A DNA stretch of 43,875 bases, the filler included, from Jimgerdemannia flammicorona (lineage: Eukaryota): assembly GCA_003990765.1 (NCBI GenBank). It is 2 parts of 2 records of this genome, joined end to end, with 100 filler letters (N's around TTAATTAATTAA, not from the genome) between each part and the next. Parts side by side here need not be neighbours in the genome. Positions count along the whole stretch, not along the records: positions 1 to 21,891 come from RBNJ01001372.1; 1 more part is not named here. The stretch is one strand, 5' to 3'. The notes under the pieces were generated by a model that was given only the letters and a program-made list of their open reading frames with translations, was not told the DNA's origin and made no database searches. Shown in pieces: positions 2,804 through 27,859 of this stretch (positions within the stretch are counted from its first letter, which is position 1; every line of letters starts with the position of its first letter). Made by a program: the position numbers and the translations under genes.

Positions 2804-3024
2804 TTTTTTTTTTTATTTTTTTTATTTTTTTTTTATAGTCACTTGGACTTTGCCATTTATTATCAGTATAGTTACAGTGACAGGATTTCCTCTCACTACC
2901 CAATCCCCATAAGAAAGTCCCCTCTCATATCTTCACATTTGAAGACTATCTTATCACTCACAACTCCAATTCTCCCTCTACTCTACCTATAGATTTTCTC
3001 TACCAAGCAATATCTCCAACTATC

Positions 3025-3538
3025 TGTAGAGGCACATGGGCAAAAATAGGATGCATCCAAATTAGGCAAGAATCCTGGATTCTGAAACAACATGGAAGAA
3101 GTCCTGTTCCATTTCCATTTCTATTGGTAAAGTGCTCTAATTACTCAGCAGAGTGTTCCAGACACTTCTTGGGGTTTGTAGAAGCATATGGAGAAAGATT
3201 ACTCAGTATTTCTAGCAGTTTCGAGGATAGGAGGGCTTCTATGTATAAATAGTATAGGCTCAAGCATGCAATAAAGGACAGAGTTAGTTCAGTAAGAGAA
3301 TCAGAATTTATTGAGAATTGGCAACTAGAAGTGCATATCCTGAGGATTCGTAGATCTAAGGATTCGGTGTGCAAGCGGTCGTTTTTCAAGCCTTCCGAGA
3401 GGTTCTTCTGACACTTTACTTAGCGAATTCCCTAGCAAATGTGTCGCGATTACCACACACCCTTTCGATCTACAACCAGTCCAATTACCGCCCCTTTGAC
3501 AGTCAAGTGATTTTAGGTAGAAATTGCCAAATTTTACA
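3025..3538 (+). repeat. 5' LTR of element B
   Basis: TG...CA termini; aligns without gaps to 9814-10327; TATAAATA at 3244-3251. Confidence 0.97.
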
Positions 3539-3539
3539 T

Positions 3540-3558
3540 TGGTAGAGACGTCGAGGAA
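3540..3558 (+). promoter_or_regulatory. Primer-binding site of element B (TGGTAGAGACGTCGAGGAA); primer tRNA uncertain, possibly Ala
   Basis: TGG-initiated motif 1 nt after the 5' LTR. Confidence 0.6.
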
Positions 3559-3607
3559 TATAATTCTCAAAATCAAGCATTCAAGTGAAACCCACAACTA
3601 CATCAAG

Positions 3608-6600
3608 ATGTCACCAGCACAGGAGGCTCTGCTACGCTACACCAGTGCATACCACAAAAATGTCATCACTTTCTTTGAAGATCTAGAAACCTATATGGTT
3701 GACTGTCATATCTGCGCCAACAATGAAAAGGTGGACGTGCTCAAAGCCCACCTATGTGATGAAGCCCTAACAGTTGCCAATACTATAGTTCCATCAGAAA
3801 ACCCCTTCATTGTCTTCACTGGACCTACATATGATGTGATTAAGGCCCGCATTATCAGCCACTTCACCAAGAATTGAGGGCTCGCAGCGCTCAACATTGG
3901 CCTTGGTAACATCGTGATCAGCCTGGGGGAGAGCCCCGTTGCTTTCTGGGCCTGTGTGCAGAAGAACTGCAACCTATATGGCATTGATATAAGGGAGCTG
4001 AGAGAGCAGACATTCTACCAAGAAGCCATGAAGGTCTATAGTAGTGAGATACATTGGAATTATCGGAAGAGGTTTGATGAAGTACTCCTTGCCACTCAGA
4101 ATGCATAGGAAGACTATGTGGGACAAATCAGAATGTCCGGGCCAGCAGTATACACCCCAAGGATCCCTCTGTTTGTCTTGGACTCTTCGCCGGCCACCGG
4201 TATACCAACCAATCCTCTGGTGGCTCACTTGATGGAGTTCCGGGCTGTGATGGCGATAGTGGCAAGCACCTACATGGCTCAGCCGGCGGCCTCCCCTATG
4301 CCTATGACCAGCGATGAGCTAACGGAGTTGATCAAAAAGGCCGTTAGTCTGGCAGTGAATGATAAAATACAGCAAATCAATGACAAATTACAACAGTTCG
4401 AGAAATACACCTTGAGCAGTCCCTGGAAGTACTACAACTGTGGAGAGGTCGGCCACATGGCAAGATATTGCCCAAACTGCAAACAAGAGGATGGATTGGG
4501 ACCAGCAACAGGCAGCAATCATATACCAGTCCAAGTGGCACCCGCCAGCCATACCCCTTCTGCCAATCATGTGGGCATAAGTGAGCAGCCAGAAGGTTCA
4601 GCTGAAGCCTACCTGGTTGTAAAGGATGTCCATTTTAACCCGATAGCTGGAAGGACATGGGGAAAACAGGTGGCAACTGGAACTGGTGGGGCCAGCGGAG
4701 CCAGCGGGGCCGTTTAGGGTGGAACAGCACCAGAAGATGAGGTAATGGCAGATGTAGAGGAAGGAAACAAGAAGCCAGCTGGTGAGCAAGTAGTGGAAAT
4801 TCCCATCCTCCCAGTACCGAAGAAGAAAGCAAAGCAAGCTCAGAAGAAGTTTGGGATAATCAACATAATGAATGACGGGGAACCTTACTCGATTACAGCA
4901 TCCCTAGCCAACACACCCGCCGGTATAACCTACAGACAACTCCTAGCCATCTCCCTGATTACCCAGAAGGAGTTCAGGCAAGAGCTGTGGCATGGTGTCA
5001 TCATGGTGGAACCAGCAGAAGAACCCATGGTCAAACTGGTCATCCAGGAACCCACCATCCAAGACCCTGCCAAGAGACTAGTAGGAGCAGCCGTAACGGC
5101 CTCCGCTGTTATCACGAAACCCACCACAACCCTATATGAAGAGGTAGAAGTAGGCAGCAGGAGATATGAGGTCATCTTCGACACTAGCGCCTCGGAGAAT
5201 TGTATCCCGGAACACGTGGCCAAAACTACGAAAAGGGTGATCAAGTCTACCAACCTTGTTGTAAGCATGGCAAATGGAACCCTATGCCCGCGCGGAATAA
5301 TAGAAGGACTCAGGGCAAGGATCGGCACCAAGGAATACTTGCTCAATGCTATTGTCTTCCTGGACACCTTGTTAGCAACCATCTTAATCGGCACAGCTTG
5401 GTTGCAGCCACAAGGCACCCACATCCACTTGGATACCATGCAATTAGTTCTAAGGGATGGCAATAGCATTCCAGTATGGACTGGAGCCCAATTAATGTGG
5501 GCTGAAGGCATCGATGAGGATGATAGCGGAACGGACAATACCTCAGATGAAGAAGACAACAAAGAAAGTGACGAGCAGGCACACACTATGACAATAAACC
5601 TAATAGACCCCGACCTGGATAAGGAACAACTGCATGACCTCACGCTTATACTAGGTGATGCTCCATTCACTGACAGGGTAGAAGATTTCAGGCATTGTAA
5701 CCTTGTCTAACATTGCATATATATAGGTGACACGGTCCTGATTAGACAAAAGGCGTATAGGCTTAGCCCATAGAAGAAAGCCATTATGCAAGAAGAATTG
5801 GAAAAATTAACAATACTCAGGGTAATACAACCATCGGAGAGTCCCTGGGCCTCCTCTGTCATCATTCCAGACAAGAAGGATGGAAACTTATGACTTTGCG
5901 GCAATTTCTGGAAGCTCAACCTGGCAATGGTCAAGGATACATATCTCTTGCCTAGAATCGACGAGCTCTTGGACACACTAAGTGGAGGCACATGGTTCTC
6001 AATCTTGGACCTGAAGAGCGGGTTCTGGCAGATCGAACTGGTTCCAGAGGATAGGTCGAAAATAGCATTCATCACGGCATTCAGACTATATGAATACCAG
6101 CATATACTGATGGGTCTCGTGAACTCCCCAGCAATGTTCCAGCACCTTATGGACCTGATCCTATGACCATACATTGGCAAGTTTGTACTGGTTTACGTAG
6201 ATGATATCATCATATATTCAGCAATCTATAATGAGCATATGGAGTATTTAGCTGCCATAATGGAAGCCTTTTGGCATGCCAACCTTATGCTCAACCATAA
6301 GAAGTGTTTCTTTGCTCAAAAGCAGGTTGCTTACCTGGGACATGTCATCAATGGTGCTGGAATACATATGGATACCACCAAAATGTATAAAATTAGCATA
6401 TTTCCCATTCCAAAGAACCTCAAGGACGTACGATGGTTCCTAGGAATCATGGGATATTATTGCCATTTCATGCTTGGCTTTGCGGCAGTGGTGCAGCCCC
6501 TTATGAAGTTAATATCCAAGACACGTGCCTTCAAGTGGTCGAAGGATATGCAGCAAACATTTGAGGAATTGCGGGATCATCTGATTCAGGCACCCATCCT

Positions 6601-8475
6601 GGCATACCCACACGACAGGGCCCCCTCTATCTTGCAAACAGATGCCTCGGACTACACGATTGGCTGTGTGCTCACACAGATAGAGGTCGACAGTCTTGAA
6701 CACCCCGTCGCTTATGCAAGCAGAACTCTAAACAGTGCTGAGCAGAAGTATACAATAATGGAAAAGGAAGGATTAGCAGTCATTTGGGGTATAGACCAGT
6801 TTCATTACTATTTGGACACCGGTCAGCCTTTTGTTATACAGACCGACCATGCAGTGCTCAAATCTATCCTCGCTACCAAAGAACCCAAGGGACATATAGC
6901 TCAATGGATAGTCAAGTTGATGGCTTATCAGTATACTGTTGAGCTTCACCCAGGTCGAGTTCACTTGAATGCTGATGCATTGTCCCAGCTGATAGAACCC
7001 GAGCAAGAAGAACCAGTGGAAGTCTATGTGGTGAAGAAAAGAGCAGAACACGTAAGCACAAAGTGGACCCCAGAAATGTATGACAAGACTTTCGCCAAAA
7101 TCACCAGTTCCCCATCCAGCTTACTTCTTGTACCCCAATTCGGAGGAAAATAGAAGAAATAGTCCAGAAGCTCAAGCTCAACCAGCAGATCCTTCACTAT
7201 ATCAAAGATAAGTGCGTCTTACCTCATCCTGACCAGGTATCTCCCCTGATAGACCGATTCCATGGGATGGCACATTTCAGGCTCAAGAACACCTTGCGGG
7301 CAGTGCAACATGAATACCGGTGGCCGGGAATGTTTCAGGATGTACAACGATGTGTAGCCTCCTGTGAAGCTTGTCAGGCACGTGCCAGCCCAAAAAGGCA
7401 TGAGAACTTGATGCCTATCGAAGTGACGGGCCCCTTTGACAGGGTCGGAGTGGACTTTATTGGACTGTTGCTGCAAACAGACTGTATGAATGCATATATT
7501 ATTGTTGGCATAGACTACCTTATGAAGTGGGTAGAGGCACACACCACCATCGATGCCACCACTGCCACCGCCACTAGGTTCATATACGAGGACATAGTTT
7601 GCCGACATGGTTGCTCTGTAATCTTGCAGAGTGACCAGGGGAGCCATTTCATGGGGAATGTTGTCAGCGAGCTAACTGCTCATTTTGGAATCACCCACAA
7701 GTTTACGACGCCATATCACCCCCAGTCCAACGGCCTTGTGGAGAGATTCAACCGAACCCTAAAAGGAGTATTAAAAAGGCTGGTGTTAGAACATGACAAT
7801 AACTGGGATCTACATCTTCCCACTGTTCTTTTTGCATACCGAACCATGACCCAGGCAACTACTTGCCATTCCCCATTCACACTTACCTATGGGCAGGAGG
7901 CATGGCACTCCTTTGGACCCACCATCAGTCTAGTTGATGAGCCCTTGGAGGATACCTTAGCAGAGGCTATCCTTAGGCGAGCCAAGGAGGTCACCCATCT
8001 CGACAAGAAGGCTCGTAAGCAGGCCCTTGAGCAAATCAGGAATGAGCAAGTGAAATAGAAGGCTCAGTACGATGCTCAGAGAGTTTGGGGTCTCATTCCA
8101 CCATTGGCGGAAGGAGATCTGGTAATGCTGTATAAAGAAACCACTGGGGTGTGGGAATCTCAGTGGGTGGGGCCATATACAGTCAAGATCGTCCACGGAA
8201 ATGGCACTTATTCGCTGATGGAGCCTGGCAGAGTGGACCTAGAGGCTCCCCAACATGGAAACAGGCTCCAGGCATATATTCCAAGGGTGTAGGGGCCGAA
8301 TGAGAGCAGATACAAGAGGATGCAGGTGGAATGGAGTGTGGCTGAGTGGCGGGAGACAAAAATTAGATGCTGGCAGGACTGGCAGAAGCTGTTATTGGAG
8401 GGAATCAGCATATATTACTGCCGGAGGAATATTTGCAGATGTATAGCAGTCCAAGGAGTGGGCCGAAATAGATGA
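3608..8475 (+). pseudogene. Element B single-frame gag-pol polyprotein (9 in-frame stops, one frameshift near 7100; may end at 8292 or 8475)
   Basis: Knuckle YYNCGEVGHMARYC, protease IFDTSAS, RT LDLKSGFWQI and YVDD, RNase H LQTDASDY...EKEGLAVIW, integrase H..CEAC, VDFIG, SDQGSHF, NGLVERFNRTLK, WVGPY. No chromodomain seen. Confidence 0.95.
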
Positions 8476-8636
8476 CAACAAGGTAGCAGCATAGAGCAGA
8501 CTGAAACCTATCAAATGAGCTTTTTAGAAGAAAAATCAGGTACCAATTAGGCCAGATAACCCTGGGTAAAGAACAGACCCTTGGTAGCCCACCAGAATGC
8601 GTAGACATTTCAGTATTCCTCTTTTAGTTAAACTAG

Positions 8637-8723
8637 TATAAATATGCATCGAATATGTGACAAATCCTCTTTATCCTTGTCAATCCTCTCTCTCTTCTTT
8701 CTCTTTTCCTTCGTTATATCATC
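8637..8723 (+). promoter_or_regulatory. Putative internal promoter (TATA box plus CT-rich leader) for the cyclin-like ORF
   Basis: TATAAATA at 8637-8644, pyrimidine tract ~8664-8712, then ATCATGG at the 8724 start. Confidence 0.55.
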
Positions 8724-9782
8724 ATGGCTAACTCTTCGGTGCAAGCCCCCCTTTCCCGCTCCTCTTCAACTATCGTACCATCAACTCCACCCTTTTACCA
8801 TGCTATCCCAAACTGGGGCACCACAGCCCCAGTATCCCCCTCAATACTGTGCTCGGCTTTCACTACCCTGGAACCCGATAATGGTGGCTCCTCGACAGAT
8901 CACTTGAGCCACAACGAGTTCTCTCCCTCCGACCTTTATGAAGAAGGAGAAGCACAATGACCCCTTTGAATAGAACCCTGTGCTCCGCCCCTCAAGGAAA
9001 ACCATTACGAGCGATTCTGGTCGACTCCTGGCCACCTAGATGGTGTCATTGATTGGTAAGAAAGATATCTGCATTGGTAGGAGCACAGACGAAAACTGGA
9101 AAGTGAGGCAAAGGGTGTCTAAGTCAATATTAGAATAATGCTGATGCATAACCCATATGCTTGGCACCGATGGGAGGAAATGTTTTTATGATTGCTAGTT
9201 CTAGCATCCACGTATGGTACAGATCAGCAAATATCGATGTCCTTCGTAGCATTGAATATCCTAGACCAATTCATGGCAAGGGGTCTATTGGAAGAAGACT
9301 GTTATTGAATCGCCGACATAGTGTGCTTTGGACTGGCATATAGGGCAATGACCCCTTACCTAGATTGTCATTGGTCCTCAGAACAAGCAAAAAGACTGCA
9401 CAATGAATGATATGAGGAGAGAGGAAATGAGGAGGTCTTTTATCAACTGGAGCATGAGATTCTATAACTGTTAGAATGGCATTTGGTGCCTAAGGCCTCC
9501 GTGGAAAGCATCCTCTAGTTCCTGGGGAATGAGCAAGGAATATGACCAGAAGAAAGGCTATATACCAGGGGACTAAATGAACTGGCAATCTTCGACCAGG
9601 ACTTGGCCGAATTCAATGCATAGACCCTGGCGTCATCCAGTCTATACATTGCCAGAAAAGGGAATGCAGGGCCTCTGACCCTGGACGACCCTTGTTTTCC
9701 GTGTCTTCACTGTTTCTCACAACGCTTATGTTCCTCAGCGCCCCCCATGGTCCACCAGCATTACTCGCAGTTGTTCTTGTAA
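8724..9782 (+). pseudogene. Cyclin-like protein (N- and C-terminal cyclin folds), 352 codons, 12 in-frame stops, no frameshift
   Basis: Manual read-through: WEEMFL*LLVLASTY..SFVALNILDQFMAR..*IADIVCFGLAYR..EEVFYQLEHEIL*LLEWHLVP..RLYTRGLNELAIFDQDLAEFNA*TLASSSLYIARK. This is colinear with the cyclin consensus [90 protein letters not shown]. Confidence 0.85.
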
Positions 9783-9796
9783 GGAAGGATACATTC

Positions 9797-9813
9797 AAAG
9801 AAGGGAAGGTAGA
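9797..9813 (+). promoter_or_regulatory. Polypurine tract of element B
   Basis: AAAGAAGGGAAGGTAGA immediately before the 3' LTR. Confidence 0.85.
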
Positions 9814-10327
9814 TATTGAGGCATGTGGCCAAAAATAGGACATATCCAAATCAGGTAAGAATCCTGGATTCTGAAACAATATGGAAGAAGTTCTGTTCCA
9901 TTTCCATTTCTATCGGTAAAGCACTCTAATTACTCAGCGGAACATTCCAGACACTTCTTGGAGTTCATAGAAGCATATGGAGAAAGATTACTCAGTATTT
10001 CTAGCAGTTTCGAGGATAGGAGGGCTTCCATATATAAATAGCATAGGCTCAAGCATGCAATAAAGGACAGAGTTAGTTCAGTAAGAGAATTGAAATTTAT
10101 TGAGAATTGGCAACTAGAAGCGCATATTCTGAGGATTCATAGATCTAAGAATTCGGTGTGCAAGCAGTCGTTTTTTAAGCCTTCTGAGAGGTTCTTCTGA
10201 CACTTTACTTAGCAAATTCCCTAGAAAATGCATTGTGATTACCACACACCCTTTCAATCTACAACCAGTCCAATTACTGCCCCTTTGACAGTCAAGTGAT
10301 TTCAGGTGGAAATTGCTGAATTTCACA
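9814..10327 (+). repeat. 3' LTR of element B
   Basis: 514-bp direct repeat of 3025-3538, followed by TSD CTATC. Confidence 0.97.
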
Positions 10328-10332
10328 CTATC

Positions 10333-13300
10333 CTGCAGATTCCAGCCAAGCCACCAGTCAATCATAATGTCCTCTATTAACCCTTGCCATCTCAACAGCC
10401 TCATCTCCAAATCCAGGCTTCTCTCTTCCTCAAAAACAAATAACCAGTGACCCATCAACTCCACCTAAACTGCTAGTGCCCAACCTAAAGTAAGCTACTC
10501 CTTTTCCACCCCCCCTACCAATCTATCTCTCAAATCCTCCCACTGACCCCACTCACTATCTCTCCTATATATGATATCCAATTGATCCCCAATAACTAGC
10601 CAAAAGTCACAGGTATCTTACACTCTCCTAGCCAATGTTCTGGCATCTGTACAAATCCCTCCTCCTGTCTCACATTATGGCACTCCTCACAGTCAAAGCT
10701 TCCCTCCTCAATAAGGTGGTCTGAGCAGAAGTTGAACATAACATTTCTCTGCAGTATATATTACTAGACCACCTAGTACTTTAGCAACATCTACTATCAT
10801 ACCTCAGCACTCCAGGTCCAAACCCCATTCCAATCTCACTCCTCTCTAATACCTGCCAACTGCCATCCTCTAGGCCATAGATTCTGCCCTGGACCCCTCT
10901 GATACTCAATCTCATTGCTAATATTAAAATCAACTAGAGGAATGCCCCCCAACAATACTCTGTTTCATCTTCACATCACTAGGTCCTAAGATACTTCCCC
11001 TTCATTTCCCCTCTAGCAGATTCCAATACAGTGTGCCCTATCTACTACCCCCCACCAGAAGCCCTTGTACCACATGTGTCTATTGTTCTGAAGCCCAACT
11101 AAGGACAGTAGATCTCTCATAGAACCTCTTAGTGAGGATCTCATCTCTCAGACCTTCTGTATCAGGGGAACCCAGCTACCTCCTCTCAACTCCACCACTC
11201 TCTTCAGTCACTATGCTCTCAGACAGTATAGCCTTTTCAGAAAATCAACCAGCCCAAGGCCCCCTCTAGCCACCAGTAAAGATAAGATCTCTCAGCTAAT
11301 CTGACTCCTTCTCTTAGTCCAGATCCACCCCTTGACCAGTTTTATCAGTCTCTTTACTACCCAGGCTGGGAAGTTCAGATGATATGTCAAATACTACATA
11401 TTTAGCATTCAATAGACATTCAAAATCAAAATATACCCTGTCAGAGACAAGTAGTGTCCTCCCAACTCTGTAGGGCCTCCCCTCAGATCACAACCCACTG
11501 CTCCCACCAATGTCTTGGTAGGACTGATCCATATACTGGCAGATAGATACCCAAGTATCACACTATCTCTCCCATAGGGACAATTGTTCCAATGACATCC
11601 CCTTCCATCAGGTCATTACTCAATATCATCATTTTACACTTGTGCCAATTGAGTTTAGCCCCAGAGTATACCTCATACCACTCTACTATCTTTCTGAGCT
11701 CCTCAATGTCAGCAATCAATCCCAGGCCAACCACTATATTATCTGCAAAAGCTCCAACTTTCCACCCAATTCCATAAACCAAGAGCTTAACTATTCTCCT
11801 TCTAATCCTATCCATTAAAGGCTCTAGGGAAAGAGCATATAGAATGGGGAACAGTGGATCCCTCTGGGGCATACCTATCTCCAGGAGGAACACCACCTCT
11901 CTGTATCTATTGCATATAAGTGCAGCTCAACTCCTTTCCAGTAAGCTGACCATCACTAACTGGAACTGGTGAGGTACACCAATCTTATCCAATACCTTCA
12001 CTATCCAGATCCACCAAACCTAGTCATATGCCTTCTCCTCATCCAGAAAGACTAGTTACCCATCTAGTCTACAGGTTTGTGCCCCTTCAATAACTCTATA
12101 TATCCAAGCTGTGTTATCTCTAATGAGCTGATCTCTTATAAAGCCCCACTACTCTGCACCCAATACCTGCTGGGCCACCTTCTGCAGCCTTGTGACCACC
12201 ACCTTAGTAACCAACTTTCTGTCTATGTCTAGCAGCATGATCAGCTATCAGTTCTTCCAATCCTCCTACCTTCTCTTGTTCTTATATAGCAATATCACCA
12301 GCCCTAGATTCTGCTCTCCCACCTATCTCTCTGACTATAGTATCAAGTCATATAGTATCATCAGCTCACCCAGTAGTCTAGAGACTCCCACTATCTTCCT
12401 CCAGAAGTCTCAGGGCAGACTGTTCTCTCCTGGTACCATGTCCAGTATAGTTACAGTAAGAATCTGGCAGATCTTCTCCTCCTGTACTAGCTCTGCTAAG
12501 TCACCCAGCTCTTTGGCATATGGTAGATACCAATCCTCCAAAGCATGGTTAATGGTAACAGCATCAGCCCCACCCTCCTTCTCACTCCATAAACCACTCC
12601 ATCTCTTCTTTAACAAACCAAGAATGTCTTATATGCCATGCACCAGTAGACTATTAAAATCTAATACTCCCTCTCATCTCTACTTTACTCTCCTTACCCG
12701 AAGGGCCCTCATAAGATACTTAGAAGGCCTTTTCCCTTTCTCTATCCTCTACCAATGTAACTGAGCCACCAAACCCTACACCTACACCTCCTCTTCCAAC
12801 ATCTGTTGTAGTTCCTCAACCTCCATTTTCACCCACAGTAATCTTCAGTCCTCCCTCCCTTCCAGTGCCACCAGATCTGCCAAATCTTCCAAGAGTCTAG
12901 CCAGTCTAGCAGAAGCCCATCTCACCCTTCTCCTCCACTATCTTCTGGCCACCATACCAGCCTTACTCCAATAGGCCCTTGCAACCTCTTTTATTCTCAT
13001 CCATCAGGCACCAACTGGGGTACCTTCCTATATCCAGCCCTCCACCTTCTGCTGAATATCCTCAACCTACTTGTCCCACATCACTATATCATCCAATAAA
13101 GAGGAATTAAGGCACCAATGTCCAGGCCCATTCCCACCTCCCCCAAATGACTCTGCCCTAGCAGCCCCCAATGATCTGACTACAGACACCACTCTGTCTC
13201 CAGCGATTTTCAGACATCCAAACCCCAGCAGCTTGCTATCAGAATCCAGTCAATCCTTGTTCCCAGACTACCTGCCCAATGTGTATATACCCTCCTATTA

Positions 13301-13850
13301 CCCCAGAACCCCCTGCTAGTATCTACCAGAGTACTTAGTCTTTCTACTTCCTCCCATACCTCCAGCCCTCCACTCCTACCCATGGTCCCCCACTCTCTGT
13401 CAGTTCTATCTACCAGCACATCTCTGATCATATTGAAGTCCCCATCAAGCACATTCACTCTAGTCTCTATAAGTACTCCACTCTCCTGAAGACTCTTTAC
13501 TCAATTTATATACTCATTTCTTATAGTAGAGCAGTAGCAGGAACCCACTGTAACTGGCTCCCAATCTGTTTGTATCCACTCTTCCCAAACCAGCCTATCT
13601 CTCCAGATCCTCACATTCTGTATCTCCCTTCTGCCTCTCTGAATCAGAATCCCAACCTTGCCTTTCCAAACTATCTCACCACTCCATTCCTTCATCCATT
13701 CCAGCCTATCCAAATCATCCTCACATCTGATATCCTGCAAAAGAAAAAGATCAGTCTCCAATCCCTTCAGCCAAGCAAAAATGTTCTGATGCCAAAAGAA
13801 CTCCTTAACCTATTCACATTCATAGAAAAAATGTTGGTTATACTGTTCAT
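10333..13850 (-). pseudogene. LINE copy 1 ORF2 (APE endonuclease-RT-C-terminal Cys/His); extreme C-terminus continues at ~2900-3024
   Basis: MNSITNIF.., DLFLLQD, GDFN, TRIDWIL (endonuclease); GMPQRDPLFPILY, KVGAFADN (RT). Confidence 0.9.
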
Positions 13851-13879
13851 AGGGAAAATTGTGTGATATCAAGAATATT

Positions 13880-15900
13880 CTCTACTACTCTATATTCATC
13901 ACCTCCTGCACCATGTTTAGATTGTATTCAGCAGACACCTCCTCCTCCTCAGCCCTCTTAGCCTCTAATCCAACCAGTAGCTCAGTCATTATCCCATTAT
14001 TCCTTTCCTCAAAGTCTTCATGATACTCCAGACAAGCCTCCTATCAGAGTTACAATCTATGATACTTAGCCCAACAGTAGGTGGCCCTTTTACCAGCAAC
14101 AACTACCAGCTCAGCCTTTCTCTCCTTATCCACCTCATATTCCTTCTCCTCCAAGAACACTGCAAGTATTTCTGCCTTCAATGCTACCACTACTCCATCA
14201 CTCTATAAGATCTGTGCCCAGTATTCATCACTCATCACTCTAAGATCCACTTCTCCCAACTCTTCAGCTGCCAAGTTATTCATCATCTGGTACACCCAGA
14301 GTAGATTCCCAATATCCTTCCCCCCAGAGATTGCTGGCCTTCTTCTATCCAGCATCATGATATCAGTCCCTGTACTTACTGACTCATTCCACTCCTCCTC
14401 TGGGACATCTACCAATTTCTCTTCACTAGTTGCCACCACCTGGCCCCCCTTCACCACCTCAGAAACTCCAAAGTACACTTGTTGGGCACTACACATTATC
14501 ACATTCTCTGCCACCTGGCCTCTCACAGCTGGTCCCCACCTTATAAGGAGAGGGGGGATATCCTCCCAGACTTCAAACATACCATCCTCATATGGGTCTT
14601 TACTCAGCACCATCCTGGCCTCCTCCAGACCTACCTTCTTATTCTCTCTACTTCCACTGACCCAGACACTTGCCTTGGCCCCTTCAGTTTCTTTACTATC
14701 ACCTGTACTCCTCTTTGCCTCTTTCTCAATTTTTGCCAGCAACTTCTTCTGCCTCCTGTATTCTTGAGACCTCTCCCATAGCTCCTTATCTATATAGACC
14801 CACTTTCCATCAATAATCTCCAGATGAGTCAACTCCACAAATACCTTCCAAGCCTTCACCCTCCTCTCTACTGCTCTACTCAACTCCTCTAGCACCTCTA
14901 GTAAGTCTTCTTCCTTCTCCTCCTCCCCTTCACCTTCATCACCTTATATATGAAGACTCTCCACACTATCACTGAAGGCCAGTCCTGTGCCTTCTCAGTA
15001 GCCTCTCTTCCAGCCAACTGAATCCAGATATCAATATTCTCTATCCAGAAGGAGATTCCTTCTTACACCCTGAACCCTACATTGACCACCTCCCTATACT
15101 CAGCCATGACTTCCTCTACTCTCCTCCTTATCTCTACTGTAGTTACTATAGGAACTCCTTTCACCAAGAGCTAGACCACTCTGGGGTCCTACCTCAGGCA
15201 GCATATCATTGATATATATATATATCTCTCCAACTATCAACCCAGCCTTCAATGCATCCTCCAATAGCCCAGCCTCCTCAAAGCCTACCTCCACTCCTTC
15301 CAAGCCCCTCAGGAACTTAACAGATGCTGCACCACCCATCTGTTTAGCAATCAGCCCTAGGACTATTTTTGCTATCACTACTAAGCCCCAGAAGTATAAA
15401 GTGACTGTGAACTCTGAAATCGATTTCTTGAGTAATGGGACCACCACTAGTCCTATTACATCATCAGCTAGGTCACTAGGCCTTATGCCCTTCCCACCAC
15501 TCAGTCCACCATCAGTAGTCCCATTTAGATTTTTTTCCAGATCCCCCATTACACTTCCATTAGCAGTTACCCCCTCAGCTACTATACTGCCAGCCCCCCT
15601 ACTCTAGCTATTTAGTGAGACTCTCCCCAGCTGCTGCTGCCCTACATTCTTCACTGTCTTCTTGCTCTTCCTCAGCCAGTCCTCCAGTTTAGTCACCATC
15701 TGCCTCTCCTTTACCATATCTGTAAAGCTTGCTCTTCTGCTCCTCTACCCTCTAATATTGCTCTCTCTCCTTCTCTGTCCATCTGCCAGCAAGTCTCTCA
15801 TGCTTTCCCCCAAGCCAGGGCCTCTTCTTATATATTGCCAGTCAAATGCACTTGGGCCTCTCTGCCCAGTATATACCTCAGAACACTCATTGGTCATTAT
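13880..15900 (-). pseudogene. LINE copy 1 ORF1, fragmented; boundaries approximate
   Basis: ORF-track fragments 15745-16005, 15100-15549 and 14203-14895 are homologous to copy 2 ORF1. Confidence 0.8.
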
Positions 15901-15988
15901 GTTTCTAGTATCTTTCTCTAAAACTATATCATAAGAGTTGTCAGAAGGTTGTGTAACCTGAATGTTACTAGAGAAAAGATGTGCCCTA

Positions 15989-16290
15989 TATATGTTTTCT
16001 TTCATTCTTATGAGCTTGAAGTATTGGTCTAATTGGAAGATCCATGTATCTGTAGATAGTTCTCCTCAGTAACTGTTGAAGATATCTGGCTTGAGTAGCT
16101 TGAAACTGACTAATATTATAGCAGAATATAATGTACTTGTAGTTCTTGTTTTCTGCTATTCTAGTTATACTTGAAATACTTGAATTTGGTGGGCCATAGA
16201 GATGATTATATCCTCTATGCTGACTTGTAGTTCTTCTGCTTCTCCTATAGCAAAGAGGTCTGGTTAGTAGACTGACTCTTCATGGCTCAT
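15989..16290 (-). pseudogene. A1 gag N-terminal part
   Basis: FKLLKPDIFNSY*GELSTDTWIFQLDQYF is a retrotransposon Gag capsid-type motif and joins the gag at 2803. Confidence 0.8.
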
Positions 16291-16364
16291 TTCAGATTTA
16301 TATGACTAGTTGTGACTGGTTTCTGAATTTGTATAAGGTGTCTTAATAAGGCAAGGTGTAATGA

Positions 16365-16380
16365 CACTACTATTATCAAG
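16365..16380 (-). promoter_or_regulatory. Degenerate PBS of A1 (TGATAATAGTAG, probably from TGGTAGCAG.., tRNA-iMet-like)
   Basis: Directly follows the 5' LTR; resembles the degenerate PBS of element C at ~31513. Confidence 0.45.
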
Positions 16381-16826
16381 TGTAATGGTTTTAGTTTCTT
16401 TAAGAGAAAGCAGCTAAATCTGGAAGTTCTAGTTGCCCTAAAATAGCTCAAAGAAATACTTAAAGAATTTCTGAGAGAAAATATTCTGAACTTTATTCAG
16501 GCAAAGAATAAGGATATTTATATATAATCTAAAAGAAAGATCTAGAAGAATCTTGGAAAGAAAGAGAAATACCAAGAAATAGGTTCTTAGCAAAGCTGAC
16601 TAATATAATTCTACAATATTCTGAAAGGTTCTATGACTAGCTAAGATAAGATGCTTAGCACCAAGGAAAGATAAGAGTGTTCTAGTAGTGTCTGGATATT
16701 GAGAGAAGGTTTCTAAGTAAGTAGAAGGTGGTAGAACATAGTAGAATATTCAAAAAATAATAAGAAAAGACTAAATAAAAGACACAAAAATGTACTAAGA
16801 CTAAATATGACTGTGAAGTTATTACA
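16381..16826 (-). repeat. 5' LTR of A1
   Basis: TGTAA...TTACA; reverse-complement homolog of 21267-21731 and 42660-42983. Confidence 0.9.
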
Positions 16827-17160
16827 GTTGAGCTAGAAGAGTTACAAAGCCTTGATGAAGCCATGAGAATTACCAATAAATTTACTTCAAACTAGAATAC
16901 TGCAAGAAGAACTACTTTGAGAACTGCTATAGAAACCAATTAAGGACAGTTGGCCCAGCACTAATGGATTAGATACTATAAACAAAAAGAGTACTAAGCT
17001 TACTCCTGAAGAAAAGAACTGTCTGAAGAAATCTAGAGCTTGTTTTTTCTATCACCAAACAAGACATATTATAACCAAATATCCTAAGAAGACTAGCAAA
17101 TCTTCTAGACCAGTCACTGTATTGTCCAAAGATATATCTGTCAATTCTACTATCAGTTAA

Positions 17161-17574
17161 CCCAAGCTCAAAATTAAGAAACTTCATCTAAAAGTCCAGG
17201 CTTCTCAATATCAAACAAAAGAAACTATTAGTCTTAACCTATATTCTGTCAAACAAGTTACCATTCCAGCTAAGGGCTGAACTCCGGTGTCTACTAGAAT
17301 TGCAGTCCAATATTCTGAAGGACATTATGTTAGAATTATACTATGATCAGGACTCAGTGTCAAATATTATTTAAATATAGATACTAGTGTTATTAACCCA
17401 GACTTTCAAGAACAAGTTCAAGTCCTACTTATCAACCAGAAGGATCAAGACTACATAGTCAAGGAAGGAGACTGAGTCATGCAAATGATTCTAGAAAAAG
17501 CCAGTTAACTCAAAATTATAGAGATTCAAGAACTCTCTAAAATCAAATGAGACCAAAAAGGTTTTGGTAGCACC
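17161..17574 (+). pseudogene. dUTPase domain of A2, between the Gag knuckle and protease
   Basis: RIIL*SGLSVK, SVINPDFQEQVQVLLIN, EGD*VMQMIL and *DQKGFGST correspond to dUTPase motifs 2-5. Confidence 0.88.
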
Positions 17575-20500
17575 AATCAAGCAGTAAGTCTTATTGAAAA
17601 TCAAGCTTAAGCTATACTCATTTTTAAAGACCTAGTTAAAAGAAAAGAAGTTTATATACTCATAGATAGTAGAGCTATAGAAAACTTCATCAATCAGAAC
17701 CTTATTGAAAGTCTCAAGATTCTCACCAAGTCTGTATCCAAGAATAATAGTATAGTTACTACAAATAGTATACTGTACTCCATTAAGTCAATTACTATCA
17801 AGCTATCCATCAAGATCTAGAAATATTAGAAATGAGTAGACCTTGAGGTCACACCACTAGGAGATCATAACCTAATCCTAGAAAAATCCTGATTTATGAA
17901 ATATAATCCAGATATTGATTGGTATAAGAATAAAGTCACCTTACTTCAAGATAGAGTCAACATCACTATCAAGACAGATAAGATCTTAAGTAAGACCCAG
18001 ATTGCAATACTATCAGCTATACAGTACAAGAGAGTACTCAAGAAGGCAATATATGCCTTTGTTGCAATAGTTCATTCTAAGAAACAAGACCAGAAACTAT
18101 CAGTTAATGAAAGTATCAAGTTACTACTAGAAGAATTCAAGGATGTCTTTCCAGACAAGCTATCTGATCTACTACTTATACAAGAAGTTGATTATGAAAT
18201 CAAACTGACCCCAAAAGCTATACTATCTAAGAAATACATATACCACATATTGCTACTTGAAATTGAAGCAGTTAAGAAGAAACTAAAAGAACTACTTATA
18301 TAAGGAGCCATTCAGCTAAGCAAATCTCCCTATAGCTCACTAGTCTTAAGAAAAAGGATAGTACTCTGTAAATATATATAAACTATCATGTACTCAATAA
18401 GCTCACTATCAAGAACTCTATCTGCTATCCTTGATTGATCAAATCTTTGATGCTTTCAAGAATGTCAAATATTTTACCAAGTTGGATCTTATGTCAGAAT
18501 ACCACCAGATCTGAATCAAGTTAGAGGATATTCTCAAAACTATATTCATGACCCCCTTTAGACTCTATGAATTCCTGGTCTTAGTATTTAGCCTCATCAA
18601 TGTATTCACTATATTCCAGACTTTGATGAATAAGATATTCAAAAAACTAACTATTTATTTTCCTGTTGGTATATCTTGATGATATTCTGATCTTTAGTGT
18701 AACTAAAGAAGAATACCTTAAACATATTTGAATAGTTCTGGAGATTCTGTGAAAACACAAACTTTATACCAAGCTCAAGAAGTACAAATTCTTCAAAGAA
18801 CAAGTCAAATATCTTAGCCACATTGTCTCTGTACAAGAAATTCAAGTAGACCCACATAAGGTAGAAGTAATTCAAGAATAGTCTATTCTATTAAACCTCA
18901 CAGAACTCCAATCCTTTCTTGGTCTAGCTGGCTACTATTATCACTTTGTCAGAAACTTCTCTGATATTGCTGAGCTACTGACTAACCTCATGAGGAAGGC
19001 CCCACACTCAGACCACTATGTATCCTATATCTGAGACCTCTTCTGTCAATAAGCTTTCCAAGAACTCAAGAACTATCTAATCTATACTCCAGTTCTGCAT
19101 AATACAGATCAAAGCCTAAAATTCATAGTTATCACTAATGTGTCAAAATTTGTCATTAGAGCAGTCCTATTATAAGATAATGGTAAAGAACATCGCTCTA
19201 TTGCTTTTAAGTTCCACAAGTTGACTCCAGCCAAACAAAAGCTAGCTACTCACAAGAAGGAACTACTGGTAATAATATACACACTAGACTACTGGTAATA
19301 CTATCTAGAAGATATTGAGTTTGATGTCATTACTGACTATCAATCTCTCAAATACATCAATACCCAATCTACTCTATTATGTTTACAAGTTAAATAGAGC
19401 CTCAAGCTCAAACCTTCAACCCAATGATCATCTACAAGTCTGGTAAGATACTTATAGTACCAGATGCCTTATCAAGATATCCAGATCTTACCATAATCAT
19501 ACAAGTTATCTTGGCATCAGAATTTCTAGACCAAATTAGGCAAACTTACAAAAAAGACATAGTCACTAATAGAGTTTTCTCAAATAAGCTCAAGGATATA
19601 TATACTATTGAGAACAACCTAATCTATCATCAAGACCAAGTCTATTTATCTGAAAACATGAGCTTATATTATAAGGTTTTGTAAGAATACTATGACTCCT
19701 CTCTTGCCAGTTATCTTAGAATCAAAAAGACTATCAATAATATCCAATACTGCTATTATTAGCCAAGCATAGTTAAGAAAATCATAAACTATATTACTAG
19801 CTATAATCTATATCAGTATAACAAGTCTACTAACTAAGCACTAGCCAGTTTGTTACAATTACTACTAATTCTCACCAAGAAATTTGAGTAAGTTATAATG
19901 GACTTTGTAACTCAACTGCTATAAACTCAATCTGGTGCTAATACTATTGTTATATTTATTGATTGCCTGACTAAGACTATAGTTACTGAACTAAATACTA
20001 CTAATACTACTGCACTCAAGATTGCAAGAATCTTCTTCAAGTTCATCTTCTATCACTATAGCCTACTATGAGTAATTATCAATAATCATAACTCTAAGTT
20101 TACTAGTTACTTCTGGTAAACTCTCTTCAAGACCCTGAGAACCCAATTAGCTATATCTACTGCCTTTCACTCATAAACTGATAGACAAACTGAGTACATT
20201 AACAGAACTCTAGAATAGATACTTAGAAACTATATTTCTTATGAATAAGATGATTGGGACTATTATCTAACTTATGCAGAGTTTGTATACAATAATACTA
20301 TCTAATCATCTACTGGTCTTTTTCCTTTTCAGTTACTTTATGATCAAGATTCTGAGACCCCTGCAAGTTTAGTCTCTTTCAAGAAAAGCAGTCAAATATA
20401 AGTCTCTACTGCTAAGAGTTTTATAGACAAAATGAACAAACTACTTAAGATTGCTACTGTAAATCTTCAGAAGACCCAATAGTATCAAGCCAAGTATACT

Positions 20501-20789
20501 GATAAGAAATACTACAATATTACTTATACTGTTAGAGATCAACCTACTATCTACTGAGAACCTCAAGATATAATCTCAAATCAACCACCTGTTAAATAAG
20601 TTCTAACTCAAGTATATTAGACCTTTCAAGATTACTGAACAAGTTTCTGCATTCTCTTATCACCTCAAGCTATCTGAAGTTATAAGAGTATACTCAGTCT
20701 TTTATATATCACACCTCAAGACCTAGAACTAGTTACTGCCCTATCCTGGTCAAATTCCCAAGCTATCTATCTCTGATTATTGAAGACTA

Positions 20790-20945
20790 TATTGAGTATA
20801 AAGCTGAGAAAATTCAAATGAATCTGTTACTGCTATTCTGAATACCTAGTCAAGTAGATGGACTATCCTGAATATGATACTATCTGGGAACTACTGGTTA
20901 ATCTCAAGAACTCTCAAGATCTAGTTCAAGACTTCAAGGCAAAAT
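20790..20945 (+). pseudogene. Integrase C-terminal chromodomain of A2
   Basis: EYKAEKI...EYLVK*MDYPEYDTIWELLVNLKNSQDLVQDF resembles YLVKW.GY...TWEP..NL. Confidence 0.85.
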
Positions 20946-21266
20946 ATATTATCTAATCTCTATAGTGACTTCTTTGAATTATTAATGATCTATGATAATA
21001 ATCAGTACTTTATATATCAGAAGTTTACTTTGAGACCCCAGAACCAGTAGAATATTTAATGAACAAAAAGTCTACTGAAATAAAGCTACTAGCTAGATTC
21101 AAACTCCTTCTAGTTAGTTAGTCTAGTAATAGACCCTCTGTCCTATATAAGGATGGCTAATCCCTACCAATGTACTAATATAAGTTTGAGAAATTTTAGT
21201 AAAGTATATCTAATCTTATATTATCTAAGAACTCAATAAGGATATTAGTTCTTAAGAAAAGAGAGA

Positions 21267-21731
21267 TGTAATAATTTCACAGTTATATTTTAACCTTAAT
21301 ATATTTTCACATCTTTTAGCTAGTCTTTTTTTATCATTTTTTGAACATTTTACTATATTTCACTACTTTCTACTTACTTGAAAATCTCCTCTTAGTATCT
21401 AGACACTACTAGAATATTCTTGTCTTTCCTTGACATCAAATATCTTATCTTAGCTAGTTATAGAATCTTTTAGAATATTATAGAATTATATTAGTCAGCT
21501 TTATCAAAAATCTATTTTTTGACATTTCTCTTTCTTTCCAAAATCCTTCTAGATCTTTCTTTCAGATCATATATAAATATTCTTATTTTCTATCTGAATA
21601 AAGCTCAGAATATTTTCTCTCAGAAATCCTTCTAAAATACTTGAATCTTTAAATATCTCTTCAAGCTACTTTAGGCTTACTAGAACTTCTAGATTTAGCT
21701 ACTTTCTCTTAAAGAAACTAGAACTGTTATA
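21267..21731 (+). repeat. 3' LTR of A2
   Basis: Follows the PPT; TGTAA...GTTATA (from TTACA); homologous to the A1 LTR. Confidence 0.9.
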
Positions 21732-21740
21732 GTTTTAATA

Positions 21741-21891
21741 AATCTTAAGTAACTCAAAGAGATATATATATATATTTAAGTAATCTTAAAAAAAAATTTA
21801 AAAAAAAATTATAAGCTTTATTTGAGTAGAGAAAGAGAATATTTATATATATAAGATCTGAAAGAAAGATTTAGAAGAATCTTAAAAATGA
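21741..21891 (-). repeat. Highly degenerate family-A LTR fragment
   Basis: Resembles 16430-16560 (e.g. ATCTGAAAGAAAGATTTAGAAGAATCTT). Confidence 0.5.
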
Positions 21892-21991
21892 NNNNNNNNN
21901 NNNNNNNNNNNNNNNNNNNNNNNNNNNNNNNNNNNTTAATTAATTAANNNNNNNNNNNNNNNNNNNNNNNNNNNNNNNNNNNNNNNNNNNN
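21892..21991. other. Assembly gap / artificial contig linker (N44-TTAATTAATTAA-N44)
   Basis: Symmetric N runs around a six-frame stop 12-mer at 21936-21947; 100 bp total. Confidence 0.95.
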
Positions 21992-22049
21992 TTTTTTATA
22001 GTCCCTTGGACTCTATCTTTATTACCAGTCTATGAATAAGTATACAATA

Positions 22050-25000
22050 TCACCACCCACTATCCAATCTCCATCAGGGGGCCCCTCTCCACCTCTTCAC
22101 ATATAAAGACCATCCTCTCACCAACAACTCCAACTCTCCCACCACTCTGACCACAGATTTTCACTACCAAGCGGCACCTCCGACCCCCCTACAGCCCCCA
22201 ACCAAGCCACCAGCCTGTCAAGGTATCCTCTATAAGGCACTGCCACCATGATAACTGGCTCCCCAAGCTCTGTTGCCTCTCCTCCTCAAATACAAATAGC
22301 CAGTGATTGGCCAGCCCAATCCAAATAGCCAATGTCCAGTCTAAAGTAATCTACTCCTCCCCTACCCCTCCTACCAATTGATCCCTCAGGTCCTCCCACC
22401 TCCCCCATACATTATCTCCCCTATGTCTCACCCCCAAGCGGTCCCCAATGGCCCACCAAAAGTCTCTCAACACTTCACACTCCCCTAGCCAATGTTCTGG
22501 CATCTGTACAAATCCCCCTTCCTTCCCTACATTATGGCACTCCTCGCAGTCAAAGCAGCCCCCTATGACAAGGTGTCCTGAGCAGAAGTTAAACATCACA
22601 TTTCTCCTCAGCATGCACCACCAGATCACCCAGTACTTTGGCAGCATCCAATTTTTCACTGCGGCACTCCAGGTCCAAACTCCATACCAGTCCCACTCCT
22701 CACCAATTCCAACTCTTTGCCAACCACTCAGCCACAGATCCTGGCCTGGTCTCCTTTGGCATTCAATTCCATCACCAATGTTGAACTCAAGTAAAGGCAT
22801 GCCTCCTAGAAGAATGCCATCCCATCTCTACATCGCTGGGCCCTAAGTCCTCTCCCCCTCATCCTCTTACCAGCGAATACCAATATGGTGTGCCCCCTCA
22901 GCTATCCCCCACCAAAAGCCTTTATATCTCAGTTGTGCAGTGTTCTGAAGCCCAACTAATGAAAGAAGATCACCAGTCAAGCCTCTTGGTGATGACCACC
23001 TCTCCCATACCTTCTGCAGCAGGGGGACCCAGCCCCCTCCATGCAACTCCACCACCCTCTTAAGCCACCATGCCCTCAAGCAGTGTAGTCATTTGGGGAA
23101 GTCCACCAGCCCAAGACCACCTCTCACCACCAGTAGGGACAAAGTCTCCCAACCAATCTGACTCCATCTGCCAGCCCAAATCCATCTCTTGGCCACCTTC
23201 ACCAATCTCTTCACCATCCAGGCTGGGAAGTCCAGATGATAAGCCAGATACCACAGCTTCAGCAGCCAGTATATATTCAAAATTGAGATCCTTCCTGTCA
23301 GAGAGAAGTGTCTTCCCCCCCAACCCCACAGGTCCTCCTCCTAAATTTCAATCCTCTGCTCCCACCACAGCCTGGGCAGAACAGACCCATAGACCAACAA
23401 ATAGATGCCTAAGTATCGCACTGCCTCTCCGGTGGGGACAATTGTTCCAATAACTTCTCCGCCCACCAGGCCATTGCCCAGCACTATTGTTTCGCACTTG
23501 TGCCAATTCAGCTTCACCCCAGAGTTCTCCTCATACCACTCCACTGTCTTCTTGAGCTCTTCGACATCCACAGTCACTCCCAAACCAACCACCATATTAT
23601 CAGCAAAGGCTCCAACTTTCCAGCCAACTCCATAGATAGAGAGCCCCACTATTCTCCACCAAATCCTATCCATTAGAGGTTCCAAGAAAGAGCATACAAA
23701 ATGGGGGACAGTGGGTCCCCCTGGGGCACTCCCCTACCCAGAGGGAATGCTACCCCTCTATGCCTATTACACATGAGTGCAGCCCTACTCCTTTCCAGTA
23801 GGCTGACTATCGCCAACCGAAATGGGACCGGAACCCCAATTCTATCTAATACTTTCACCAGCCAGACTCACTGCACCTGGTCATAAGCCTTCTCCTGGTC
23901 CAAGAAGACAAGATGCCCATCCAGTCCACAGGCTTGAGCACCTTCAATAACTCCATGGACCCAGGCTGTGCCATCTCTAATAAGCCAACCCCCTATGAAG
24001 CCCCTCTGCTCAACACCCACAATTTGCTGGGCTACCTTCTGTAGCCTTGCAACTACCACCTTAGTCACCAACTTTCTGTCCATATCTAGCAACATTATCA
24101 GCCACCAGTTCTTCCAATCCTCTCATCTTCCTTTGTTCTTATAAAGCAGCGTCACTAGCCCAAGATCCTGCTCCCTCACCCATCTCTCTGACTGCAATAT
24201 AAAGTCACACAGTTCTGTCAACTCCCCCAACATACCCGGGACTCCAACCATTCGCTTCCAGAAGTCCCAGGGTAGGCCATCCTCCCCAGGTGCCATACCC
24301 GAGGCCATCATGGCAAGAATCTGGTGGATCTCATCCTCCTTTACAGGTATCACCAGGTCACCTAATCCCTCAGCCTGTGGTGGGTGCCAATCTTCTAATA
24401 TTTGGTCAATGGCTGTAGCATCTGCCCCACCCTCCTCCTCACTCCACAATCCACTCCATCATGCCTTCAGCATTCCAAGGATATCCTGTACACCATGCAC
24501 TAGTATACCATCCAAGTCAAGTACCCCTTCCCACTGCTGCTATACCCTTCTCACTCGAAGTGTCCTCATGAGAAACTTGGAAGGCCTCTCCCCTTCCTCC
24601 AGCCTCTGCCAGTGAAGCTGTGCCACCAGGCCTTGTATCCTTGACTCTTCCTCTTCCTGCAGCACCTGTTGTAGTTCCCCAACCTCCATCTTTACCCTCG
24701 TTATTCTCCAATCCTCTTCTCTCTCCACTACTGCCAGTCTCGCCCACTCCTTCAGGAGCCTAGCCAATCTAGTAGAAGCCCAATGCACTCTCTGCCTTTG
24801 CTGCTTCGCAGCCACTCTGCCAGCCTCACTCCAGTACATCCTGGCCATCTCTTTCAACCTCATCTACCAAACCCCAATTGCAGCCCCTTCCTGCCACCAA
24901 TTCGCCACCTTTAGCTGAATGTCTTTCACCCACTCCTCTCACCGAGACTCATCATCCAACAAGGAGGAATTTAGGCGCCAATGTCCAGGCCCATCACTAC

Positions 25001-25715: not shown

Positions 25716-25749
25716 AATGAAATATGGTTTGTTCTCAATCAATCCCTAC

Positions 25750-27775: not shown

Positions 27776-27859
27776 GATACTAGTAGCTTTTCTCCAGAAA
27801 CTGTATCAAAAGTGTTACCAAAAGATTGTGTAACCTGAATGTTACTGAAGAAAGGTGTG

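Follow-up and report, generated by a model that had tools for sequence, protein, structure and literature searches.

Viral cyclins are the textbook case of a takeover of the host cell cycle, and are known from large DNA viruses and a few fish retroviruses. The v-cyclins of gammaherpesviruses are virus-borne cyclin homologues taken from the host, and the orf a gene of walleye dermal sarcoma virus (WDSV) presumably lies close to the 3′ long terminal repeat (LTR). Can an LTR retrotransposon carry such a gene as well? The question is raised by a locus of Jimgerdemannia flammicorona (assembly GCA_003990765.1). In the stretch of 43,875 nucleotides analysed here (the window; positions count along its whole length), a Ty3/Gypsy element carries a third reading frame (8724–9782), in sense orientation between its integrase and its polypurine tract, which a reading made from the sequence alone (the sequence-only reading) had taken for the element's own cyclin gene. 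In this study, we conclude that 8724–9782 is probably the decayed remnant of a very divergent two-fold cyclin-like gene, carried as cargo of the element and with the history and function that are proposed below. What stands of the earlier claim is a cyclin-like remnant; what does not stand is a working gene in this copy, whose frame is broken by 12 stops.

Translated from the ATG at 8724 to the TAA at 9782, the frame comprises 352 codons and contains 12 internal stops (six TGA, three TAA and three TAG, at codons 79, 82, 112, 119, 133, 156, 195, 229, 248, 265, 274 and 300), and its earlier description as a 352-codon frame that is open for its first 78 codons is exact. It is also true that each stop lies one transition from a codon for Arg, Gln or Trp, but this holds for all stop codons and is therefore no evidence for a gene. 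By base composition and codon usage the frame is coding-like. Its composition differs between codon positions (chi2 22, p 0.0012), the same test giving chi2 0.9 for the LTR, 36–77 for chunks of pol and 6.3 (p 0.39) for the spacer at 8351–8723. A codon-usage score trained on gag-pol places this frame top of the six and is equalled by 0.25% of dinucleotide shuffles in-frame, or by 0.6% when the best of six frames is taken; over the spacer 8293–8723 no frame is best by this score. The coding signal spans approximately 8844–9680 and is strongest at 9084–9680, with none in the first 78 codons or in the last approximately 70. As the first 78 codons lack the signal, the ATG at 8724 stays a putative start. 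These codons are indeed Ser/Pro-rich, as had been stated of the N-terminus, but show neither coding signal nor similarity.

The relationship to cyclins was assessed with a hidden Markov model (HMM) of 81 natural B-type cyclins (300–520 residues), out of 120 fetched with a natural cyclin exon as the seed (L054:1911–2144, which came from a helix-1 motif scan of prokaryote genome contigs). The profile was built in this way without tuning to the window, and the search was run with all filters off. The frame scored 10.6 bits (P 1.4e-5) in an alignment of codons 240–312 that starts in first-fold helix 5 and continues, with one gap, into the second fold; of the other five frames, three gave P 0.2–0.35 and two are unreported. 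When the whole window was ranked as 396 six-frame chunks, both chunks with this frame came top and the next reached 5.3 bits, and none of 5000 residue shuffles attained the real score of 11.1 (best shuffle 3.6). Two sub-profiles that do not overlap were also used. The second-fold sub-profile gave 17.1 bits with codons 240–352 (P 1.9e-7, 0/3000 shuffles), and the first-fold sub-profile gave 3.2 bits with codons 140–239 (P 0.005, equalled by 23/3000 shuffles), the match being FVALNILDQF at the colinear site of helix 2. Comparison by hhalign with the alignment of the 81 cyclins returned Prob 74.5% and E 2.7e-5 over 132 columns at 17% identity (codons 174–316 against template positions 166–300), while the five other frames reached 0.1–2.9% and 150 shuffles at most 5.3%. 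Pairwise phmmer against B-type cyclins gave a best E of 7e-6 (0.0057 for the best of 20 shuffles), BLASTP identity to B-type cyclins was 20–28%, and the best tblastn high-scoring segment pair was 9243–9683. When 11 overlapping 100-residue pieces of the frame were searched against Pfam, two matched Cyclin_C at one site (codons 282–313; E 0.035 and 0.056; 14.6 and 13.9 bits) and nine matched nothing, which leaves Cyclin_C as the sole Pfam family among the pieces; 55 control pieces from the other five frames produced three matches at two sites (SAMD1_SHD, E 0.07; zinc knuckle, E 1), none of them a cyclin.

Several residues fall where a cyclin would have them. In the hhalign alignment, LDQF lies on the near-invariant Asp-Arg of helix 2, the Asp being kept and the Arg replaced by Gln; the sequence-only reading had equated LDQF with the cyclin LDRF site, and the first-fold sub-profile places it at helix 2 too. 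The Arg of AYR takes the place of the invariant Lys, and the near-invariant helix-5 Glu is matched by the Glu of LEHEIL, again in agreement with what had been claimed of these two positions. This Lys (helix 3) and Glu (helix 5) form the pair that contacts the kinase in cyclins. The R-EEMFL-W block proposed earlier, as restored by reversing transitions, finds no support: it lies outside every alignment, both of its hallmark residues are hypothetical, and if one back-transition per codon is allowed R-x5-W can be reached 2–10 times in any of the six frames and also in 98% of shuffles. The claim that the frame is colinear with both cyclin folds is upheld by the sub-profiles and the hhalign match; the Pfam cutoffs are missed, and helix 1 is not aligned in the frame. 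Homology of the core at 9243–9671 to cyclins appears likely from these comparisons. For the frame as a whole the profile matches lend a cyclin identity support of moderate strength, and we place it, on grounds of homology, among cyclin-like sequences rather than among demonstrated cyclins.

A substantial body of results weighs against this interpretation. The cyclin reading initially seemed refuted, because the whole read-through met no family in Pfam, no cyclin in the PDB and nothing in the protein sets, and its fold model could not be used. With X at the stops it matched no Pfam family at E ≤ 10, which is also the outcome of the search against Cyclin_N and Cyclin_C that had been suggested as a check. 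Cyclin_N (PF00134) matched neither the whole frame nor any of 16 fragments, and the Cyclin_C (PF02984) match of 14.6 bits lies below the gathering cutoff of 22, its E of 0.035 being insufficient alone given the number of pieces tried. Searches by phmmer of PDB chains with the read-through and two sub-fragments found no cyclin, the read-through hitting one unrelated chain at E 0.41. No match was found among 1.84 billion representative proteins, and a word-indexed search of 5.8 billion clustered proteins yielded 667 word-sharing candidates and no match. The single-sequence AlphaFold2 model of the read-through is unusable (predicted local distance difference test, pLDDT, 35; predicted template-modelling score, pTM, 0.23); Foldseek with it returned no cyclin and nothing at E ≤ 0.001, a result as meaningless as the model. 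A 38-residue stop-free piece met no family in the ESM Atlas, only unnamed short clusters. Within the frame, helix 1 (M-R-A-I-L-V-D-W, with invariant Arg, Asp and Trp) was aligned neither by the sub-profile HMM nor by hhalign, and other invariants of B cyclins are changed: Met replaces the Glu that follows the Lys, Asp replaces a Gly, and a Gln column holds a stop. The six frames over 8724–9782 hold 12, 16, 15, 20, 14 and 12 stops and shuffles 17.5 ± 4.0 (P(≤12) = 0.10), so that the stop number by itself is no better than chance. Finally, every test that came out positive is of the sequence-profile kind and was made on a single decayed copy, and the second-fold results from Pfam, the HMM and hhalign are mutually dependent.

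How the element decayed bears on what the stops mean. Among the 46 differences between the LTRs, 44 are transitions, many of them CA/TG pairs or with CG kept in one LTR, and CpG observed/expected is 0.3–0.5 in the element and 0.01–0.17 in the rest of the window. The element has decayed by methylated-CpG deamination plus other transitions, with no insertions or deletions in 510 nt of LTR. Repeat-induced point mutation was considered as the process and rejected, as TpA/ApT (0.67–0.88) and (CpA+TpG)/(ApC+GpT) (1.3–1.7) do not resemble it. CpG depletion is extreme across the window, and divergence is almost purely transitional, as with heavy CpG methylation. Since decay has proceeded by transitions and the LTRs are free of indels, twelve stops without a frameshift are plausible. 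The stops are unevenly spread: the frame has 12 against 23 surviving stop-prone codons (34%), while gag-pol-integrase has 11 against 107 (9%; Fisher P 8e-4), and 352 codons with the stop density of pol should hold 2.5 stops (Poisson P 1e-5). The decay time of the frame would be about four-fold that of pol, with an error of roughly 1.2 to 14 by rough binomial bounds. This excess suggests that the frame had most likely died before the insertion of this copy, at a time when pol was still maintained; in this copy it is a pseudogene. The pol domains of the same copy are still recognised at E 1e-25 to 1e-32 despite decay. The cyclin similarity is below what such decay leaves of a canonical cyclin, which suggests that the gene had diverged far before its death, and this earlier divergence would reflect either a fast-evolving element gene, as rv-cyclin is, or an aberrant source cyclin.

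Other copies were sought in a sequencing-run index, in which one DNA run, a soil metagenome, matched with 0.05 of the words and no RNA run matching the sequence was listed. Two contigs of 151 nt from soil metagenome lie on 8685–8832 (three differences) and 8923–9073 (16 differences). All 11 of the differences listed are transitions, codons 79 and 82 are sense there, and over the 31 codons with listed differences the metagenome read has no stop in frame 0 or in frame +2. By these contigs there is at least one further, diverged copy of the frame's 5′ part. The run covers 8685–9073 only, with no cover elsewhere on the element, and within that cover no link between the read and any LTR element is seen. 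No relatives of the frame were found in metagenome or viral contigs. A search with the integrase gave 49 metagenome loci, mostly distant (26–44% identity, with two short pieces at 61–64%), and none of them holds a frame-like sequence (best tblastn E 5.3). The closest pol relatives among the matches listed are 37–44% identical, the named ones being from fish, rotifer, fluke, bivalve and insects, and a cyclin domain occurs in none of the 120 pol relatives among these matches. At 17 metagenome loci, 28 open reading frames (ORFs) downstream of the integrase were scanned (of 91 with at least 100 amino acids): 12 are Baculo_F envelope genes and none is a cyclin. Baculo_F follows a distant relative of the integrase at L020, L021, L024, L028, L029, L034, L037, L039 and L040, and the contigs that bear it are insect errantivirus-like elements. 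The exon that seeded the cyclin profile (L054:1911–2144) is a eukaryote-type B-cyclin exon with intact helix 1 and helix 2 motifs on a 732-kb contig of a metagenome-assembled genome labelled Nitrospirales, and reflects either contamination or chimerism of the bin, or gene transfer.

The missing helix 1 invites an explanation in which the real gene is not a single frame. The cyclin helix-1 motif RAILVD is encoded at 9008–9025, in frame +2 relative to 8724 and approximately 160 nt upstream of the colinear place of helix 1, and these 160 nt to the frame-0 core could be intronic, or could reflect an insertion accompanied by a frameshift. Coding for the hexamer occurs once in the 43.9-kb window, inside the region concerned, and in 0/100 shuffles; a sub-HMM scores the stretch at 3.4 bits (equalled by 3/3000 shuffles), and it is the best hhalign match of frame +2 (E 0.015). 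Between RAILVD and the core lie GGTAAG (9055–9060) and a T-rich run with AG (9180–9204), and four of the 12 stops fall within 9057–9191. Yet the score is carried by the hexamer alone and vanishes once this is masked, the motif was spotted post hoc, and a check by hand found no GT-AG pair that reconciles the frames with the canonical spacing of helices 1 and 2, so an intron that would bring RAILVD into frame was rejected. The metagenome read, moreover, differs at the next codon, which suggests that the Trp after RAILVD-S comes from CpG decay. A helix-1 motif scan of viral contigs found nothing. RAILVD may be coincidental, or it may be the true helix 1 that an insertion or intron has moved out of place; a gene assembled across the two frames seems unlikely to us. 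The stretch does affect one earlier claim. That the frame is frameshift-free is shown by hhalign for codons 174–316 only, and the claim is weaker for the first third, which lacks such support, because RAILVD lies in frame +2.

Could the resemblance be accidental? On that account the region is non-coding 3′ internal sequence, or a decayed frame of no known family, and its likeness to cyclins arises by accident, from a translation that is all-helical and rich in Leu, Ala and Glu. The whole frame has no Pfam family and no relative in the 1.84 billion proteins, the number of its stops does not fall below chance, the hhalign alignment has an identity of just 17%, control frames give Pfam matches of similar E (SAMD1_SHD, above), and 2/20 shuffles attain a phmmer E of 0.006–0.015. 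However, composition-preserving shuffles fall short of the profile scores (0/5000, 0/3000 and 0/150), two distinct segments agree with the cyclin profile, each at its colinear part, the sole Pfam family is the predicted one at the predicted site, and periodicity and codon usage single out the same frame; we consider chance quite improbable. A different reading accepts the homology and denies the gene a role: a fragment of cyclin mRNA would have been transduced once, or a cyclin retrocopy would have landed in the element, to decay neutrally ever since, confined to one sub-line of the family and never of any function for the element. Such passive cargo is a real possibility, although we would not put it first. 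Stop formation at about four times the rate of pol is what it would lead one to expect, as are the lack of helix 1 in the frame, the first 78 codons without coding signal, and the absence of cyclins both from the 120 pol relatives listed and from the 28 ORFs scanned 3′ of integrases, 12 of which are Baculo_F. There is likewise no sign of a service of the gene to the element, and the excess of stops fits passive cargo equally well. Against it, the similarity to cyclins is far below what neutral decay would leave of a canonical host cyclin, given that pol is still so readily recognised, which speaks for long evolution as a separate and probably selected gene unless the source was aberrant; neither poly(A) nor a second target duplication is seen in the sequence around 8724–9782, and the 5′ part is known from a second, diverged copy. 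A cyclin-like gene of the element, lost before this copy inserted, is the reading that we retain.

The element itself, at 3020–10332, is a complete Ty3/Gypsy (Metaviridae) LTR retrotransposon with every feature that was tested, and its parts are collected in the following table.

Features of the Ty3/Gypsy element, its accessory frame and the cyclin-like segments of that frame (positions in the window)
Feature	Position	Strand	Basis or remark
Target-site duplication CTATC, left copy	3020–3024	+	same 5 bp directly flank both LTR ends
5′ LTR	3025–3538	+	blastn; ends refined by eye
gag-pol frame (zinc knuckle, protease, reverse transcriptase, RNase H), 9 in-frame stops	3602–7171	+	Pfam
Integrase, in a frame different from that of reverse transcriptase	7201–8289	+	Pfam; one premature stop at 8056
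Spacer from pol to accessory frame, without coding signal	8293–8723	+	codon-position composition
Accessory frame, 352 codons, 12 in-frame stops	8724–9782	+	translation
Stretch coding for R-A-I-L-V-D (cyclin helix-1 motif)	9008–9025	+, frame +2 relative to 8724	motif scan
Probable cyclin-like core, codons 174–316, first-fold helix 2 to second-fold helix 3	9243–9671	+	hhalign, HMM, tblastn
Stretch matched by Cyclin_C, profile positions 27–58 of 119	9567–9662	+	Pfam on pieces
Polypurine tract AAAGAAGGGAAGG, immediately 5′ of 3′ LTR	9798–9810	+	read from sequence
3′ LTR	9814–10327	+	blastn; ends refined by eye
Target-site duplication CTATC, right copy	10328–10332	+	same 5 bp as left copy

The LTRs are 514 bp long, and 510 nt align to 9818–10327 at 90.98% without a gap (blastn). 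The Pfam matches in gag-pol are zf-CCHC (E 1.2e-4; 22.4 bits, above the cutoff of 20.8), gag-asp_proteas (7.2e-5), RVT_1 (2.3e-25) and RT_RNaseH (1.9e-32), followed in the integrase by Integrase_H2C2 (9.3e-13) and rve (2.4e-9). The pol domain order along 3602–8289 is thus protease, reverse transcriptase, RNase H, integrase; this order, the LTRs, the CTATC duplication and the polypurine tract agree with the assignment to Ty3/Gypsy in the sequence-only reading. The frame lies, as that reading also had it, between the integrase matches (within 7201–8289) and the polypurine tract, inside the LTRs and the duplication. The TAG at 8290 is likely to be the natural end of pol; the integrases of relatives align as far as approximately 8280. 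RNase H and integrase lie in different frames (7151–7201), with TAG stops at 7151 and 7160 directly before the switch, which is either a frameshift of decay or a programmed one. No second copy of the element was found within the window by blastn, and no Pfam match to Baculo_F or another env in 8724–9782, so that an envelope gene was rejected as the identity of the frame. Elsewhere in the window, a separate retroelement that is by blastn no relative of the one at 3025–10327 occupies G-rich sequence at 33000–36000 (GC skew +0.39 to +0.52), with an RVT_1 match (E 1.9e-16) at 34123–34731 (+). Two more decayed Ty3/Gypsy-like pol fragments lie at 225–1181 (−) and 18400–20540 (+) (tblastn with pol relatives, 26–48% identity). 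A repeat of approximately 5 kb is present in two copies (10620–15525 and 22477–27400) that are 68–77% alike and show very strong strand skew (GC skew −0.35 to −0.53) and CpG observed/expected of 0.01 and 0.15; a Pfam family was found in none of 18 scanned ORFs of at least 130 amino acids at 12132–27838, most of which lie inside these copies.

The history that we propose for the frame would begin with the acquisition, by the element family, of a cyclin coding sequence downstream of pol, for which the simplest source would be a host mRNA joined by template switching during reverse transcription. The captured sequence would then have evolved for long apart from canonical cyclins, and its function would have been lost in the lineage of this copy well before insertion, after which the whole element would have decayed by transitions, largely at CpG. 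While intact, the protein may have been translated from a subgenomic RNA produced by splicing, the usual route for the third ORFs (ORF3s) of LTR elements, and may have bound a host cyclin-dependent kinase (CDK) so as to shift the cell cycle or transcription state in favour of the element. The precedent for the kinase step would be the retroviral cyclin of WDSV with CDK8.

Known systems resemble the frame in part. The v-cyclins are encoded by DNA viruses, in genes that can be recognised as homologues of D-type cyclins, the likeness here being one of description. With cellular A/B-type cyclins the frame shares a colinear run extending between first-fold helix 2 and second-fold helix 3, in which the Asp and Glu are kept and the Lys is Arg. 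It differs from them in having no Cyclin_N match, a sub-threshold Cyclin_C match and no in-frame helix 1, and in being a pseudogene inside a transposon without a destruction-box region. The closest parallel by description is rv-cyclin of the walleye epsilonretroviruses (WDSV and the walleye epidermal hyperplasia viruses), an accessory gene whose product, according to the accessible text, shares less than 20% identity with host cyclins, is made from spliced RNA and associates with CDK8 (PMC3185748). Both would be cyclin-box accessory frames of a reverse-transcribing LTR element, and both diverge widely from cellular cyclins, the present frame being 17–28% identical to B-type cyclins. In contrast, the virus of rv-cyclin is an infectious vertebrate retrovirus with env, while here the carrier is Ty3/Gypsy and env was not found; and where rv-cyclin is intact, spliced and CDK8-binding, the frame here is broken 12 times and is known from sequence alone. 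The second parallel is the ORF3s that lie between pol and the 3′ LTR of LTR retrotransposons and that use spliced messages for their expression, as described in the text available to us (PMC5408684). The kinds named there include env-like, GDSL lipase and DEDDy exonuclease ORFs in bdelloid rotifers and sense or antisense additional ORFs (aORFs) in plants (PMC5408684; PMC7264820). The frame is like these in its position between pol and the 3′ LTR, its sense orientation and its presumed origin as foreign coding sequence acquired by the element, and unlike their envelope, enzyme and coiled-coil types in being probably related to a cell-cycle regulator; a cyclin is mentioned 0 times in the accessible text of either source. 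The 'cyclin-like' entry of PMC4905642 was set aside, since in the part available it denotes a host gene, placed next to a Gypsy insertion in a list, and not cargo. A full-text literature search, with subscription journals outside its coverage, gave no report of a cyclin as LTR-retrotransposon cargo. The cargo is thus unusual for a Ty3/Gypsy element, the known kinds being viral cyclins on one side and the extra ORFs of retrotransposons on the other.

The present copy is a fossil, more decayed than its own pol, and its value hinges on intact relatives. For this copy the possible role of an element gene that tunes CDK would belong in the past tense. That a Ty3/Gypsy lineage, now or recently, encodes a working, fast-evolving cyclin with a spliced subgenomic RNA and a host CDK partner is a proposition that we regard as doubtful. 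If it is true, such a cyclin would shift the cell to conditions under which the element is more readily transcribed or integrated, its acquisition would be independent of, and convergent with, those of the epsilonretrovirus and gammaherpesvirus cyclins, and it would be the first cell-cycle regulator known as retrotransposon cargo. Purely intragenomic retroelements would then also have sampled the cyclin strategy, and through the family one could test, in a natural setting, whether retrotransposition is limited by cell-cycle or Mediator-kinase control.

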